This document shows, piece by piece, positions 26,431 through 51,943 of a DNA stretch of 56,558 nucleotides; the first letter of the stretch is position 1; each line of letters opens with the position of its first letter. The notes under the pieces are model-generated. The model did not search any database. It was not told the DNA's origin and worked only from the letters and a program-made list of their open reading frames with translations. Made by a program: the position numbers and the translations under genes. Source of the stretch: a virus (taxonomy: Duplodnaviria > Caudoviricetes); the IMG/VR virus record IMGVR_UViG_3300010214_000031, positions 1 to 56,558 of that record, one strand, 5' to 3'.

Positions 26431-28044
26431 CTACGCGACCAGCAAGAGCGCGATCGCGATGTCCTCATCCTCTGCCATCGCCGTGTCGCGCCGGCCCTTC
26501 TCCGCCAGCAGCGCCACATCAGCCTCGGCTTGTGCTCGGCGTGCCGCCTCTGCCCGCTCGGCTGCAACCGCCGCTCGGCGGGCCTGTACCCGCTCTTGAC
26601 CGATGGTCGAATTGAGCTGTCGGGCCAGCGCCCTGATGGCTGCGGCGGTCTCGGCAAGCGAGGTGGCGGCGATCAGGGCCTCAGTTGCCAGCCCCTGTTC
26701 TCTCGCGACTGCGATGGCCTCGGCACGGGCTCGAGCGCGCAGCTCGTCGTCCTTGGCCTTCCTGGCAGCCTTGACCACCTGGTGGATGGTCTTGACGCGG
26801 TGGCGAGCTTTCCTGCGGTCGTCCGAACCGCCACCAACCACCGGGGCGTCGATGATCGGCGTCTGATTGGCAACGAGATTGGCCGGCGCGCCAGCGATGG
26901 CATATGCGCCGTTGGCGGCAGCGACCTTGCGCGCAAAGCGCAGCGTGGCAGCGGTGCCCGACAGCAAGTACCCGCCGGCCGATGCCGTGAAGCGGCGAGC
27001 ATTTCGCAATGCTGCCGGCTGCCCAGCGAGGCTGTAGGAGCTGCCGACGGCGAGCAGCACCGTGTTGCCCGTCTTGCCAAGGCCCGCCGCAGATCCGGTG
27101 ATCGAATAAGCGCCTGCCGCCGCAGCCACCTTGCGCGAAGCCACCAGGCTGACCGGTACGCCGCCAAGCGAGTAGCTGGCGGACGCTGCGGTGACCTTGC
27201 GGCCTGTCTTGAGCGCGGCGGCGACACCCGAGATGCCATAGCTGCCCACGGATGCCCCGACCTTCCGGCCGATCTTGACCGCAGCCGCCTGCCCAGAAAT
27301 CGCATAGGAGCTGCTCGCCGCAACGACTTTCCGGGCTCGGCGAACCGTGGCCGCTTGGCCTGTGATCGAGTAGCTGCCGGCATTCGCCGCGACCGTGTAG
27401 GCCTGTCCACCTGCCGCCTCGGCAATCGAGATGCCGCCCAGCATGTAGGTCTGGTTGACGGTATGGGCGATTGTGAAGGTGCCCGCCGACACACCGTTGG
27501 CAAGACCCGTCGCCGCAGTCAGGTAGAGACCGCCGGCATCGCTGCGGAAACTCGTGAGCGTGCTGGTCGAGCCCGTGAAATTGAGCGTCGTGCCGCCGCT
27601 GCTGCCGGCATAGCCAACCACCAGGCCGTTGGCGGTCGTGGTGAGCGGGATAGTCTGTGTTGCCGGGTATCCGCTGTGGACGATGCTGGCAGCGTTTACC
27701 GCGCCGGCGCCTCGAACCACCAAGGCATAGATGACCGGGTTGTCGCCGAAGGCGTCGGTGGCAGTGCCGATGCTGCACGACTGCACGCCTGAAACATTGT
27801 CCGGCAGCATTGCCGACAAGATGCTCGTCGGCAGATACCCATCATCTGAGCCTGCTGCATGCAGTGCCGCGACAGCTCCGGCAAAGGTGCCGCCATTCGA
27901 AGTCGGGCCATCAACGCAGGCATGGAAGACGACAAGACGTCTGTTGGCGGCAGCCGCGCCAGTGTCGACGTTGAAGCTGATCGTGTGCGATGGCCATACC
28001 GCACCTGGCGTTATGACCTGAACAGCGTCAGGAGTTGTTGGCAT
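26431..28044 (-). CDS. Repeat-containing putative structural (fibre-like) protein
   Basis: Beta-rich N-terminus, eight ~22-aa repeats, helical C-terminus. Confidence 0.65.
   Translation of the reverse strand: MPTTPDAVQVITPGAVWPSHTISFNVDTGAAAANRRLVVFHACVDGPTSNGGTFAGAVAALHAAGSDDGYLPTSILSAMLPDNVSGVQSCSIGTATDAFGDNPVIYALVVRGAGAVNAASIVHSGYPATQTIPLTTTANGLVVGYAGSSGGTTLNFTGSTSTLTSFRSDAGGLYLTAATGLANGVSAGTFTIAHTVNQTYMLGGISIAEAAGGQAYTVAANAGSYSITGQAATVRRARKVVAASSSYAISGQAAAVKIGRKVGASVGSYGISGVAAALKTGRKVTAASASYSLGGVPVSLVASRKVAAAAGAYSITGSAAGLGKTGNTVLLAVGSSYSLAGQPAALRNARRFTASAGGYLLSGTAATLRFARKVAAANGAYAIAGAPANLVANQTPIIDAPVVGGGSDDRRKARHRVKTIHQVVKAARKAKDDELRARARAEAIAVAREQGLATEALIAATSLAETAAAIRALARQLNSTIGQERVQARRAAVAAERAEAARRAQAEADVALLAEKGRRDTAMAEDEDIAIALLLVA
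26870..27399 (-). repeat. Eight ~22-aa protein repeats (KVxAxxGSYxIxGxxAxLxxxR); approximate bounds
   Basis: Visible in the translation of 26431-28044. Confidence 0.85.
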
Positions 28045-28059
28045 TGGTCAGGCTGACGC

Positions 28060-28326
28060 CTAGCGCACATCCCAGAGCGGACGGACGTCGCCGCCGCCGC
28101 ACATGAAGCGCGAATGCTTCCGACCGCATGTGCAGTGGAAGATGTAGATGTCGGGCACTGGCTCGCCGGCGACACTGAAGAAAGCCTCAATGTCGTGCTC
28201 TTCAGGATGCCTGCAGCACGACGCAATCTGCTGGTTGTGCTCCAGCGCTTCGAAGAACTTCGCCGGGATCAGGTCGGCCGGAAGGCTCGATACCTTGACG
28301 CGCGGGCAGGCTTGGACGTGAGCCAT
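28060..28326 (-). CDS. Small Cys/His-rich protein
   Basis: MAHVQAC start with TGATG coupling; CCRH, HCTCGRKH. Confidence 0.6.
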   Translation of the reverse strand: MAHVQACPRVKVSSLPADLIPAKFFEALEHNQQIASCCRHPEEHDIEAFFSVAGEPVPDIYIFHCTCGRKHSRFMCGGGDVRPLWDVR

Positions 28327-48390: not shown

Positions 48391-48708
48391 GGTTTTGCTC
48401 CACGATTGGCGTCGTGAAGTCACCGGGCTGGCCGGTTGGAACTCCGGCCCCTCTGAGATGGCTGACAGGCCGAACATGGCCCCCTCGAACTGCTGGAACA
48501 CGCAAATGGCTTTCGAACACATCGGCAAGCTTGCGCGCGGCATTCTGGAACAATGCCGCGCTGCCAAAGGTGAAAACCGATCCCAGGATATCGAGAGCCG
48601 CGGGGAGGCTGAGATCACTCGACACGATCTCCACCTCCCCGCGACCGTTCCTTGCTGCCGCAGGGCGGGGGGCTTGGGGTACACACGGCACAAGGAAATC
48701 TGAGCCCG

Positions 48709-49497
48709 TCATGGACGTGGCTCCTTGGCCTCTGCCGTCTTCTGGCAGGGACCACAATGGACGCTCCCGTAACCGCCGCAGCGGTCAAGGTGAAGGCAAT
48801 GTGGACGCAACTCTTCAATCGACTTGGGACGCAATGCGACCCCTGTGGCCCCGCCGGCATCGGGAGTGAGTGCCGACGCGGCCACAGGAGTATCGGGGCC
48901 GCCGACCGGGCCGACCCGATTGTCTGCCGCCGGCGAGCCAGCGGGCTCATCAGCGGTCTTCAAGCTGTCGCCCGAGGCTGGTTGCCCGGCCTCGGGCTTA
49001 TCCGCAGCGTCATCCCCCTGCCCTGCGAAAGGCAGGTCGCTTGTCCCGGCGGTTGGTGTTTCGGCTGGGGATTGCTTGGCCTCGCCCGTGGCGATGCCGG
49101 TATGCTTGGTGACGATGTCGGCGCCGCTGTCAGATCGCTTGCCGACGACACGAAGGTTCGGCTTCTTGCCAGCCTCACGTGCATGCGCCTGCGCGGCGGC
49201 CTTGGCTTTGGCATCCTGATACGCCTGGCGGTACAGGTCGACGAGCGTGTCGCGCTCTTCGACATGCGCCTTGCCGTGCTTCGCCTCGTTCCGCTGCTCA
49301 GTGACGAGCACGCCGATTGCCTGCTTGTCGAGGCCAACGCCATGAGCCTCGGCGTAGACCTCGCGGACGTCAGCGCCGATGTCGTCCTGCTTGCTCTTCA
49401 GCGCCAGGATGCGATCGACGAAGACCATCATCTGGTCGCCTGCGATGTTCGCTTCGGTCGGATTGACGGTGCCTGGGGTGGTACGGTGCTTGATCAT
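48709..49497 (-). CDS. GapR (DUF2312) domain protein with long C-terminal extension
   Basis: FVDRI..L...DI..DVREVYAEA.G.GLD...E.D.L.DLY..A. Confidence 0.8.
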   Translation of the reverse strand: MIKHRTTPGTVNPTEANIAGDQMMVFVDRILALKSKQDDIGADVREVYAEAHGVGLDKQAIGVLVTEQRNEAKHGKAHVEERDTLVDLYRQAYQDAKAKAAAQAHAREAGKKPNLRVVGKRSDSGADIVTKHTGIATGEAKQSPAETPTAGTSDLPFAGQGDDAADKPEAGQPASGDSLKTADEPAGSPAADNRVGPVGGPDTPVAASALTPDAGGATGVALRPKSIEELRPHCLHLDRCGGYGSVHCGPCQKTAEAKEPRP

Positions 49498-49706
49498 GCT
49501 GCCCATTCCTTCCGGGCCTCATTGATCCTGGCGCGCTCGGCGACCATGAAGCCCCTGATCTGGGCTTCCGTCTCCGGCCAAACCCTCTTGCCGGAACGTA
49601 GACGCTCCATCAGCCGGCCATTGCGCACAGCGCGGATGCCGAACTGGTAGTCACCGATGCCGGTGAGCTTCAGGAACTCGTTGATGTCTGCGAGCAGCTT
49701 GTCCAT
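49494..49706 (-). CDS. Cro-like regulator
   Basis: LL..I..FL..TG....FG..A.....L.ERLRSG...PET...IR.FM; divergent from the repressor. Confidence 0.8.
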   Translation of the reverse strand: MDKLLADINEFLKLTGIGDYQFGIRAVRNGRLMERLRSGKRVWPETEAQIRGFMVAERARINEARKEWAA

Positions 49707-49717
49707 GGCGCGCACAA

Positions 49718-49775
49718 TACACGCATTTGCGTGGATGGCAATACGCGGAATTACGTGCACACGCAATTCCGTCTA
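49718..49775. promoter_or_regulatory. Three 18-bp operators overlapping the divergent cro/cI promoters
   Basis: TACACGCATTTGCGTGGA (49718), TACGCGGAATTACGTGCA (49742), CACACGCAATTCCGTCTA (49758). Confidence 0.75.
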
Positions 49776-49793
49776 TTGTGCTAGGCCTTCGCC

Positions 49794-50108
49794 ATGACTG
49801 AGGACTGGAAAGAGCGCATCCTGGCGGCGGCTGCAAAGGACGGAAGGTCCGACCGCGCCATCAGCATTGCCGCCGGGCTGGGTGAAAACTTTCTCAACCA
49901 GCTCCGGCATCAATCACGTGTCTCGCCAAGCGTCGACAAGGTGCTCCAGCTCGCCAGCGAATTGAAGCTCAGCCGATCGCAGCTTTTCATCGGCGACGAC
50001 ATCAGCCAAGAGGACGAGGAGTTTTTGGAACTTCTTCGGAACTCTGCCCCGGCTGAGCGGCAGGCGCTTTTGTTGCTCTTGAAAGGTCGGCTTCCCGCCA
50101 AAGAGTAA
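49794..50108 (+). CDS. CI-like XRE repressor lacking an S24 peptidase domain
   Basis: SDRAISIAAGLGENFLNQL...PSVD.V..LA..L HTH; only 104 aa. Confidence 0.85.
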   Translation: MTEDWKERILAAAAKDGRSDRAISIAAGLGENFLNQLRHQSRVSPSVDKVLQLASELKLSRSQLFIGDDISQEDEEFLELLRNSAPAERQALLLLLKGRLPAKE

Positions 50109-50175
50109 GCCGACGGCGCTTTTCCTCCGCCGTCAGCTTCAGCCACTCCCTGATCAACTCTCCAACTACACGCAC
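50002..50175 (-). CDS. 57-aa antisense ORF, candidate antirepressor (not in ORF track)
   Basis: GGGGG RBS-like run then GTG; MRVVGELIREWLKLTAEEKRRRLTLWREAD... Confidence 0.45.
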   Translation of the reverse strand: MRVVGELIREWLKLTAEEKRRRLTLWREADLSRATKAPAAQPGQSSEEVPKTPRPLG

Positions 50176-50214
50176 TGGATTTCCCCCGCATCTTCTGCCG
50201 GCGGCGATAGGATA

Positions 50215-50243
50215 ATGTTCCTACATTTTTACACGCATGCCAA
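50215..50243 (-). promoter_or_regulatory. Putative promoter with degenerate LexA box
   Basis: TTGGCA-17 bp-GAACAT; TAAA-N7-GAAC versus the alphaproteobacterial GAAC-N7-GAAC. Confidence 0.4.
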
Positions 50244-50314
50244 GCCCCGTCGGCTCTAGGCCCGTACGGCCACTATAGTAGCGCCACCTGATTAGGCACA
50301 TACAATTGCAGATA

Positions 50315-50366
50315 TACACGAATTTGCGCGTACATTGATTGACACCCACGCAGTTGCGTGTATCGT
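50315..50366 (+). promoter_or_regulatory. Early promoter with two operators
   Basis: TACACGAATTTGCGCGTA (50315), TTGACA (50339), CCCACGCAGTTGCGTGTA (50345), TATCGT (50361). Confidence 0.75.
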
Positions 50367-50395
50367 TATGCCTCGAAACGACCCGAGGCACAACC

Positions 50396-50773
50396 ATGAA
50401 CGTCAATCGCATCCACGAAATCCTGCGCATGACGACGCGCCCCTTCCGCAAGGGGCCGGCAGTCCTCAAGCAGCATGCATCGACCGCGTACTTCGCGATG
50501 CCGCACGTCGATACGGCGGCGCCCAACCTGCGCAAGGTCGATGTCCACTACATCGTCGTGACCGTTGACCAGGATGTCGCCGAGACGCTGGGCAATTGCT
50601 TAGGCAGCACCATCGCAGACTTTTCCAGGAACGTCGACACGTCTGGCCGGCTCGCCGACGCCCTCTATGGCCACATGCGCCGGGCCATTCGCGCCAGCAT
50701 GACGGATAGCTGCGAGGTCGACTGCCACACAGCGAGTTTTCACGTGCCCATCACCGAAGGTGGCTCGGCATGA
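50396..50773 (+). CDS. Hypothetical early protein
   Basis: GAGG RBS, MNVNR start; first gene after the promoter. Confidence 0.6.
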   Translation: MNVNRIHEILRMTTRPFRKGPAVLKQHASTAYFAMPHVDTAAPNLRKVDVHYIVVTVDQDVAETLGNCLGSTIADFSRNVDTSGRLADALYGHMRRAIRASMTDSCEVDCHTASFHVPITEGGSA

Positions 50774-50836
50774 CGAACCACAAACTCCGTCGCGTCCTCC
50801 ACGACCGCGAACGCCACCTGCTGGAAGGGCAGACCA

Positions 50837-51943
50837 ATGTCTGAGAACGCTTACGCCTATTGGTACGAAGAACTCGACAAGCCGGGCTGCAATCCTCGCG
50901 ACACCGACCGGCGCGACCTTGCCGGCTTCTACCGGATGAAGGGCGCCGAGACCAAGCCGGACTTTCCGGTGGCGATCTGGCCGCGACAGGGCGACGGCAA
51001 GCTGTTGCTGAAGGTCGGCCGCACGCGGGAAATCGAAGAGGGCACGGACAAGTTCTGGGACTTCCTGATGGGCGGCTGGCTGGCGTCGTCGGCTGTGCCA
51101 CACGAATCCTATCAGCATGCGCTCGACCAAGGCGTCTGGGCTGACAATGGCAAGGCCGCTCGCCAGGTCGAGAAGGTGCCAGAGAAGCGCAAGGAGCCCG
51201 AGCAGGCACCGGCACCGGTCGAAGTGCACAATCGCCCTGCCCAGCCTCCTGTGCGCCAGCCAGGCGTGCAGGTTGCTGCAGGCGACAATGGCGGCCCTGC
51301 CCTTGGCCAGGAGATCGCCGAGAAGGTGAAAGCCGAGAACGCGCTGCTGCGCCAGCTCACGGCCCAGCCTGTCACCGACAAGGACACCGCCGAGAAGGTC
51401 GGCGAATGCGTCAATCGCCTGCTCAAGCTCAAAGGGACTGCCGAAACGGACCATAAGGCGGCCAAGGCCTACTGGCTGGAAGGCGGTCGCAAGGTCGATG
51501 CTGCCTTCAATCCGTCGATCAAGGCGGCCGATGAAGGCATGAAGTTCGGCCGCCTAAAGGTGAAAGCCTTCCTAGACGCCGAACAGAAGCGCCTCGAGGC
51601 CAAGGCCGCCGAGGAAGCCGCCATCAAGCAGGCGGAGATGGACCGCAGGGCCAAAGAGGAAGCCGAACTCACCGGCAAGCCGCTGGAAGAGATCGAGGTC
51701 AAGCAGGTCCAGCCGAAGCATGTCGTGGCTAAGGTTGGCGGTGCCGCCGGCAAGTCGATCACGGTCAACCAGCGCCGCTACTACCGCGCCGAGATCACCG
51801 ACTATTACGCGCTTGTCGACGCCTTCAAGGACGAGCCCGAGCTGTATGACGCTGTCGTGCGCATCGCCCACCGGCTCGCCAACGTCAAGGATGCCACCAT
51901 CCCGAAGGGCATGCGCGTCGTCGAAGTGCAGGAGGCCGCATAA
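50837..51943 (+). CDS. Coiled-coil phage protein of the recombination module
   Basis: 368 aa; K.AE..HK..K...LE.GRKVDA.F helical region. Confidence 0.7.
   Translation: MSENAYAYWYEELDKPGCNPRDTDRRDLAGFYRMKGAETKPDFPVAIWPRQGDGKLLLKVGRTREIEEGTDKFWDFLMGGWLASSAVPHESYQHALDQGVWADNGKAARQVEKVPEKRKEPEQAPAPVEVHNRPAQPPVRQPGVQVAAGDNGGPALGQEIAEKVKAENALLRQLTAQPVTDKDTAEKVGECVNRLLKLKGTAETDHKAAKAYWLEGGRKVDAAFNPSIKAADEGMKFGRLKVKAFLDAEQKRLEAKAAEEAAIKQAEMDRRAKEEAELTGKPLEEIEVKQVQPKHVVAKVGGAAGKSITVNQRRYYRAEITDYYALVDAFKDEPELYDAVVRIAHRLANVKDATIPKGMRVVEVQEAA

Follow-up and report, generated by a model that had tools for sequence, protein, structure and literature searches.

DNA of a virus assigned to Duplodnaviria; Caudoviricetes, namely positions 1 to 56,558 of the IMG/VR record IMGVR_UViG_3300010214_000031 (the entire analysed stretch of 56,558 nt, hereafter the window), contains a minus-strand open reading frame (ORF) of 57 amino acids (aa), located directly downstream of a short repressor gene and convergent on it, which we propose, with a probability of about 60%, to encode an SOS-linked antirepressor acting by mimicry of the C-terminal tail of that repressor. 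This small gene is most likely real because (i) the ORF is conserved beside homologous repressors, (ii) its family shows a profile-level likeness to the repressor tail, (iii) LexA boxes accompany it in relatives and (iv) a natural variant changes its conserved core only silently. Since it is conserved, copies the tail and is LexA-boxed in most relatives, and since the repressor appears unable to cleave itself, the small gene probably serves to wake these phages by disabling the repressor. An earlier interpretation made without database searches (hereafter, the sequence-only reading) had proposed a hidden SOS-controlled antirepressor at this place; its core idea is partly supported, and holds better than the evidence which that reading had itself brought forward would warrant.

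The argument draws on the following elements of the window:
49794-50108, plus strand: short cI/XRE-type helix-turn-helix (HTH) repressor, 104 aa (from the ORF list)
50002-50175, minus strand: candidate antirepressor gene (the small ORF), 57 aa, GTG start at 50175-50173 (from the ORF list)
50183-50187, minus strand: Shine-Dalgarno-like GGGGG, 7 nt before the GTG
50215-50243, minus strand: promoter-like TTGGCA-N17-GAACAT for the small ORF (TTGGCA at 50243-50238, GAACAT at 50220-50215)
50206-50220, minus strand: degenerate LexA-type repeat GAAC-N7-TATC, starting 112 nt past the repressor stop, at the place homologous to that of the boxes in relatives
50028-50042: the sole perfect LexA-type repeat in the window, GAACTTCTTCGGAAC on the plus strand (GTTC-N7-GTTC on the minus strand)
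50168-50174, plus strand: lone half-operator of the repressor (ACACGCA), extending into the start codon of the small ORF
50231-50237, plus strand: second lone half-operator (ACACGCA), directly adjacent to the small ORF's -35-like TTGGCA
50107-50139: hairpin (inverted repeat), inside the coding region of the small-ORF core

The ORF with its GTG start, the GGGGG ahead of it, its overlap with the repressor 3' end and the promoter-like TTGGCA-N17-GAACAT were all found as the sequence-only reading had described them. The overlap comprises the final 107 nt of the repressor gene; residues 1–29 of the small protein (50089-50175) constitute its conserved core, which is amphipathic and charged rather than membrane-like, and residues 30–57 are read-through antisense to the repressor gene. 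The G+C content at third codon positions (GC3) is 0.48 for the whole ORF, because within the overlap its third positions are second positions of repressor codons, and 0.73 for the 22 non-overlapping codons, in a window with an overall G+C content of 62.8%. The DNA ahead of the small ORF consists of a spacer of 220 nt, beyond which orf125 is encoded in the opposite orientation. A natural variant with 96% identity, obtained from two public wastewater runs, carries 16 substitutions in the repressor gene resulting in a single amino-acid change, only two substitutions, both synonymous, in small-ORF residues 1–29, and no substitution at all across 50176-50255. Residues 30–48 undergo six amino-acid changes in the variant via substitutions that are silent in the repressor frame, and residues 30–57 appear to be unconstrained.

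The repressor was correctly described by the sequence-only reading as devoid of an autocleavage domain: no Pfam family was matched at E <= 0.1, and the AlphaFold2 (AF2) model is all-helical with a predicted local distance difference test score (pLDDT) of 90. Its modelled helices (residues 4–16, 20–26, 33–39, 47–56 and 61–65, then 72–83 and 86–99) correspond to a five-helix HTH domain (4–65), a linker and a C-terminal two-helix tail (72–83, 86–99). The fold of the N-terminal domain resembles that of P22 c2 (Foldseek, template modelling score TMt 0.76), the profile search against PDB yielded HTH-only matches to ClgR (1.1e-6), ImmR, SinR and P22 c2, and the only PHROG match was a weak one to a 'transcriptional regulator' (E 0.0025). 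A HMMER scan identified relatives of this repressor in 296 representative clusters (E <= 0.001), mostly 100–150 aa in length and matched end to end, with a conserved tail consensus EEFLxLLxxxxPxxRxxLLxLLR.

DNA of relatives was obtained by four routes: a scan of viral contigs; tblastn against phage records, which yielded Ochrobactrum phage POI1126 and Agrobacterium phage Atu_ph08; a degenerate pattern of the HTH stretch applied to genome, viral and metagenome contigs; and a class-level genome search with hits in 11 of 401 genomes at E <= 1e-8, mostly to the N-terminal part only. No match was obtained with a stricter first version of the degenerate DNA pattern; neither blastn against phages nor scans of viral and genome contigs with single proteins revealed a close relative of the repressor or of the neighbouring 368-aa gene product; and a word-based protein search with the repressor returned the repressor itself only. 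After removal of duplicates, 19 loci of the short repressor type (window included) were retained, each matching the family hidden Markov model (HMM) at E < 1e-20, along with a weaker member (L012). Not included in the short-type counts were L014, L015 and L022 (E 1e-10 to 1e-13), in which neither the small-protein motif nor a nearby LexA box was detected, and the truncated L037.

Conservation of the ORF beside homologous repressors was a check proposed by the sequence-only reading: each of the 19 short-type loci, as well as L012, has an opposite-strand frame convergent on the 3' end of the repressor gene. These frames begin 40–130 nt past the repressor stop, end 15–140 nt inside the repressor gene, encode proteins of 49–81 aa and share the N-terminal motif h-x-E-h-L-x-x-W-x-x-L-[STDP]-x-[DE]-x-[KR]-x-x-h-L. 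A start codon 4–9 codons ahead of the motif, itself preceded by a G-rich run (e.g., GGGGGA, AGGTGGG, GGGAGG or AAGGAG), is a feature of nearly all loci. The family is almost never annotated by gene callers. Its members in the two isolated phages are:
L007, 2166-2345, minus strand: small ORF of POI1126, annotated as gp72, 'hypothetical protein'
L008, 1055-1240, minus strand: small ORF of Atu_ph08, with no coding sequence (CDS) in the GenBank record
The POI1126 regulator gp73 is of the short type, and its gene overlaps gp72 by just 18 nt; the annotated start of gp72 lies upstream of the LexA repeat, which places the repeat inside the annotated CDS. The gp72 3' end carries a canonical terminator-like hairpin with a T-run. 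POI1126 is mitomycin-C inducible and was isolated by mitomycin-C induction (PMC5492332); the searched passages of this paper and of the Atu_ph08 paper contain no mention of LexA or of an antirepressor.

The LexA boxes provide the second line of evidence. The SOS box of Caulobacter is GTTCN7GTTC (PMC9578287, Table 1), and perfect repeats of this kind (GTTC-N7-GTTC or GAAC-N7-GAAC) were counted both in the first 250 nt past the repressor stop (4,335 bases in total) and in the rest of the 18 related loci (63,550 bases): the former contained 15 boxes, distributed over 14 of the 18 relatives, and the latter none. A LexA box beside homologous repressors, the other comparison suggested at the outset, is therefore a prevalent feature. 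Seven of the boxes begin within a narrow interval of 110–120 nt past the stop (L001, L009, L003, L008, L042, L030 and L025), and the boxes of relatives overlap or directly follow promoter-like hexamers upstream of the small-ORF start. The small ORF of Atu_ph08 (L008) is preceded by a perfect GTTCGCGTTCTGTTC. In L036, two perfect repeats in opposite orientations are found 100 and 170 nt past the repressor stop, upstream of the small ORF. We have little doubt that the small-gene family is LexA-regulated in these relatives.

None of the 11 relatives with a long-type repressor (L005, L006, L031, L016-L020, L023, L013 and L014), which share the HTH N-terminus and have long C-termini, shows a box within 250 nt after the stop, and two of them (L006 and L019) contain an S24-like G.SM.P motif. 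Because boxes occur in the zone after short-type repressors and in 0 of 11 long-type loci, the repressor family is divided, as judged from sequence, into two complementary types: repressors of the self-cleaving type without the module, and short repressors accompanied by a LexA-boxed small gene.

The window itself departs from this pattern. Thus, while the conserved ORF and the perfect boxes of relatives agree with SOS control of an antirepressor as originally suggested, the box at the homologous place in the window is degenerate, and SOS control of the window phage may for this reason have been weakened, abolished or rewired. Upstream of the small ORF, the window has no site that comes within one mismatch of a perfect repeat, and its sole perfect repeat (50028-50042) is located where the repressor-tail coding sequence and the 3' part of the small ORF overlap, 133–147 nt downstream of the GTG, at a place where no relative has a box. 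The variant has kept the degenerate box as well as this perfect repeat, the latter with a single spacer substitution (50033). Among the features that may bear on rewiring are the two half-operators flanking the small-ORF promoter and the perfect repeat 180 nt away in the overlap; the half-operators may, by their position, allow the repressor to also damp its own antirepressor.

The third line of evidence is the likeness between the small protein and the repressor tail. Alignment of a profile of 18 small ORFs with a profile of 42 repressors (hhalign) gave a probability of 90% and E 1.6e-6 over 32 columns, with small-ORF residues 3–34 placed on repressor residues 73–104, i.e., across both tail helices. 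By this comparison, the small-ORF family is related at the profile level to the C-terminal tail of the repressor. The likeness is not the same DNA read backwards, as the aligned core is encoded outside the overlap and the frames within the overlap are antiparallel. A tail-only HMM, from which the window was excluded, recognized 7 of 20 small ORFs at E < 0.01 (e.g., L004 with 1.1e-6, L009 with 4.8e-6 and the window ORF with 7.6e-4, all within the set of 20). In two relatives of the repressor (P0002 and P0003) the tail is present as two tandem copies, and the model of P0002 (pLDDT 89) displays two successive helix hairpins. The sequence data suggest that the mimic was derived from the repressor. 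A predicted complex of the repressor with small-ORF residues 1–40 gave interaction prediction scores from aligned errors (ipSAE) of 0.25 and 0.24, below the mark of 0.32; coming from calculations performed without controls, these values speak neither for nor against binding.

Combining these lines of evidence, we propose that alphaproteobacterial temperate phages with short non-cleavable HTH repressors would encode, directly downstream of the repressor gene and convergent on it, a family of small proteins acting on the repressor tail. The tail would support pairing of repressor molecules, required for binding to palindromic and neighbouring operators at two divergent early promoters. DNA damage would lead to cleavage of LexA and thereby switch on the small gene, whose product would occupy the tail that would otherwise pair with a second repressor, yielding a dominant-negative heterodimer. 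Operator binding would then be lost and the phage induced.

A number of observations weigh against this proposal. Within the window, LexA-like sites with up to two mismatches are no more frequent than expected (454 seen vs. 477 expected), and the chance of finding such a site in the 11-nt homologous zone is ~0.09; the combination of one perfect and one degenerate LexA half-site, on which the sequence-only reading had relied, is indeed present at 50220-50206, but with two mismatches, both in the same half, and at chance density. Among the relatives, a perfect box was not found in L002, L039 and L041 (265 nt of flanking sequence) or in L032 (for which no more than 85 nt of flank were available); in L002, a site with one mismatch is located farther upstream. 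The 19 short-type loci are not fully independent, since L002/L039 and L030/L025 are close pairs. The direct resemblance of the window ORF to its own repressor tail, which had been the basis of the original helix-mimicry claim, is not significant in pairwise terms (BLOSUM62 score of 6 with four identities over 21 residues; a better 21-mer in 1000 of 1000 shuffles; BLASTP E = 21 for the small ORF vs. the repressor), and it is the family-level profile, in the same register, that sustains this claim. When searched against all 1316 frames of the window, both the tail-only HMM and a leave-one-out small-ORF HMM ranked the small-ORF frame third (E 0.12 and 0.65, respectively), which is suggestive by rank and weak by score; a 29-aa frame at 28017-28103 (plus strand), probably a chance match, scored above the small ORF with the tail HMM (E 0.0085). 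Small ORFs are not significantly more similar to their own than to other tails (mean local score 26.1 vs. 24.1, permutation p 0.09); by likeness to the own tail, L004, L011 and L044 come first and the window fourth among 19. Furthermore, the window contains 388 ORFs of at least 57 aa, the small ORF had no match in word-based protein searches, no Pfam (E <= 0.1) or PHROG family was matched by the window ORF or by any of the 18 family members, and the family profile retrieved one match at E <= 0.01 from 5.8 billion protein clusters, a collection from which the window ORF itself is absent. A PDB profile search with the small ORFs likewise gave nothing below E 0.1. Overall, each feature of the window ORF taken alone does not exceed chance, and these features gain significance only through the comparison with relatives.

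The abundance of comparable ORFs, the whole-ORF GC3 and the absence from gene-finder output are what would be expected of a chance antisense frame in GC-rich DNA, in which case the stem after the repressor stop would be a plain repressor terminator, as the sequence-only reading had cautioned. The stem (50112-50118 paired with 50128-50134, 7 bp, extending to 50107-50118 and 50128-50139 with 92% complementarity) has a minimum free energy of -19.0 and z = -3.0 for the 70 nt around it, and the variant carries a C-to-T substitution at 50128 through which the closing pair becomes G-U in plus-strand RNA but is lost in minus-strand RNA. Yet the hairpin is followed by no T-run on the plus strand, was not called by the terminator scan and shows no conservation, with z above -1 in 14 of 18 loci, hence it cannot explain a conserved open frame. 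Relatives with non-alignable DNA share the frame with its motif, its start signals and the LexA box, and the profile likeness to the tail would be equally unexpected of a random frame. A chance origin is thus highly improbable, although the hairpin may function as the cI terminator in the window.

Two further alternatives accept SOS induction and differ as to what acts. An antisense RNA, interfering with transcription or pairing at the repressor 3' end with the peptide being incidental, would account for the convergent overlap conserved in all short-type loci and for the freedom of the overlapping part at the protein level, and the same idea was once proposed for the Bacillus phage gene aimX. 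It would leave unexplained the amino-acid motif maintained across divergent DNA, the start codon with its G-rich run, the profile likeness to the tail and the synonymous-only changes of the core; moreover, the overlap in POI1126 is minimal, and for AimX the authors favour the peptide over pairing. As the sole mechanism it is quite unlikely, but the antisense RNA and peptide mechanisms could coexist. The other alternative, a genuine SOS-induced small protein with a different role (e.g., a co-factor stabilizing the repressor, a modulator of other phage or host proteins or a host-directed factor), is compatible with the fact that conservation and LexA boxes speak for coding and regulation and not for a particular target, as well as with the lack of a significant preference of small ORFs for their cognate tails. 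Against it stand the ties of the gene to one repressor type (19 of 19 short-type loci, with no box at the long-type loci) and its homology to the repressor tail, which suggests that the target is this tail or the surface with which it pairs; the amphipathic, charged character of the core also argues against such roles. We consider a different role unlikely, and an antirepressor mimicking the repressor tail remains the preferred interpretation.

The proposed antirepressor can be compared with several known systems. In the AimX/AimC systems (phi106, BMBtp14, Wbeta and Waukesha92), AimX is a helical protein of 29–80 aa whose gene sometimes overlaps aimC and, in the phi106 family, has a LexA site just upstream of the ORF; by attaching to the C-domain of AimC, a pair of helices, it prevents that repressor from oligomerising and from binding DNA (bioRxiv 10.1101/2025.11.23.689978). 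The authors of that preprint conclude that the peptide matters rather than the antisense pairing which had been proposed first, and liken the mechanism to that of SinI/SinR. AimC is similar to the modelled window repressor in being short and non-cleavable, with a five-helix HTH domain, a linker and a C-terminal antiparallel helix pair, and AimX is similar to the small ORF in being small and encoded beside the repressor gene; AimX is described as replacing a second C-domain. At the same time, the 49 PDB sequences to which the repressor profile matched at E <= 1 do not include AimC, and its structure (9iaq_D) appears only at rank 34 among Foldseek matches (E 0.37, root-mean-square deviation 9.4). 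AimX/AimC belong to Bacillus phages, whereas the hosts considered here are Alphaproteobacteria with the GTTC-N7-GTTC box, and homology of the antagonist to the repressor's own tail is not reported for AimX in the passages of the preprint that were searched. No arbitrium receptor or peptide genes were noted among the ORFs scanned near the locus, a survey that included no dedicated AimR/AimP search.

SinI, a small helical antagonist, resembles the oligomerisation helices of SinR and forms a heterodimer that stops assembly on DNA (bioRxiv 10.1101/2025.11.23.689978). The similarity consists in an antagonist homologous to the repressor's own helices, the tail being the presumed oligomerisation element of the window repressor, and extends to the HTH domain of SinR, which is related to that of the window repressor (1b0n_A, E 7.5e-5, profile positions 13–70). 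The match ends at profile position 70, and the SinR C-terminus is unrelated to the repressor tail; a SinI-domain Pfam match was found neither for the repressor nor for the small ORF (E <= 0.1) nor for any of the 18 family small ORFs. The sinI gene precedes sinR on the same strand and is not known to be under LexA control, and SinI/SinR constitute a chromosomal biofilm switch rather than a phage switch.

The regulatory logic is shared with the LexA-controlled antirepressors Tum of coliphage 186 and those of the Gifsy phages (PMC9437464, PMC3121763). In those phages, too, a non-cleavable repressor is combined with an antirepressor under host LexA, resulting in indirect SOS induction. Their antirepressors are larger and unrelated in sequence, and none of the proteins studied here matched a PHROG or Pfam antirepressor family. 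The Tum and Gifsy antirepressors are not known to be paralogues of a repressor tail, nor to be encoded by genes that converge on and overlap the repressor gene. Small antirepressors and modulators, such as Qtip (79 aa, phage VP882), Coi (P1) and MOR (TP901-1), are likewise phage proteins of less than 100 aa that bind a cI-type repressor directly, are highly divergent and are rarely annotated (PMC11323111). They differ in that Qtip responds to quorum sensing and MOR targets the DNA-binding function of the repressor; none of the three is described as LexA-boxed in the searched passages of that source, and none shows a sequence relation to the small ORF.

As to origin, one may imagine that the antirepressor arose from a duplicated repressor tail (with tandem-tail proteins such as P0002 and P0003 as intermediates), that the copy came to lie on the opposite strand under a LexA box, overlapping the sequence from which it was made, so that a self-contained cassette of a repressor and a dominant-negative tail could render any short HTH repressor SOS-inducible, and that the window cassette is in the midst of rewiring, its promoter box having decayed, its half-operators providing a double-negative loop and a new perfect repeat having appeared in the overlap; this scenario is doubtful in its entirety.

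If correct, the proposed function would explain how alphaproteobacterial temperate phages with non-self-cleaving repressors (including POI1126 and Atu_ph08) respond to DNA damage, and would imply that the logic of AimX/AimC and SinI/SinR, in which a mimic of the oligomerisation helix disables the repressor, arose independently outside Firmicutes. The analysis adds a gene missed by standard annotation and offers a signature (a short repressor, a convergent small ORF and GTTC-N7-GTTC) for predicting SOS-inducible prophages of this class. In the literature searched, including passages of the POI1126 and Atu_ph08 papers and not covering supplementary gene tables, no description of this module in Alphaproteobacteria was found.

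The remaining elements of the genetic switch are as follows:
49494-49706, minus strand: divergent gene, 70 aa, a conserved partner of the repressor (from the ORF list)
49714-49781: left operator cluster with three copies of the palindrome CACGCAnTTGCGTG (49720, 49744 and 49760), overlapping a leftward promoter-like TTGCCA-16-TATTGT (49741-49714, minus strand)
50312-50366: right operator cluster with CACGCAnTTGCGTG copies at 50317 and 50347, overlapping a rightward promoter-like TTGACA-16-TATCGT (50339-50366, plus strand)
As predicted from the sequence, the layout is that of a repressor gene placed between two repressed early promoters, the rightward of which lies upstream of, and drives, orf125 and the recombination genes. 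The half-operator ACACGCA occurs in 12 copies in the window, five of them within the 640 nt of 49719-50361. The scan for consensus promoters returned only these two promoter-like sequences and missed TTGGCA-N17-GAACAT, and no Rfam families were detected within 48500-51500. The 70-aa divergent gene has homologues at the same place in L001, L006 and Atu_ph08 with the motif ...GRLxERxRxGRxxWPETExxxRxF..., lacks a Pfam or PHROG match and may represent a Cro-like partner in the switch.

Elsewhere in the window, protein family and domain searches identified a DarB-like protein of 3111 aa, a large terminase, two methyltransferases, a RecT-like annealing protein, a DnaQ-like exonuclease and a GapR-domain protein. 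A search of public sequencing runs for the switch region yielded no genuine RNA dataset. In one public run (X4, labelled as RNA and probably DNA), which covers only 49450-49731 and 50484-50577, contigs are identical to the window over these two segments and then continue into unrelated sequence, which suggests a mosaic relative with common leftward genes and a different immunity region.

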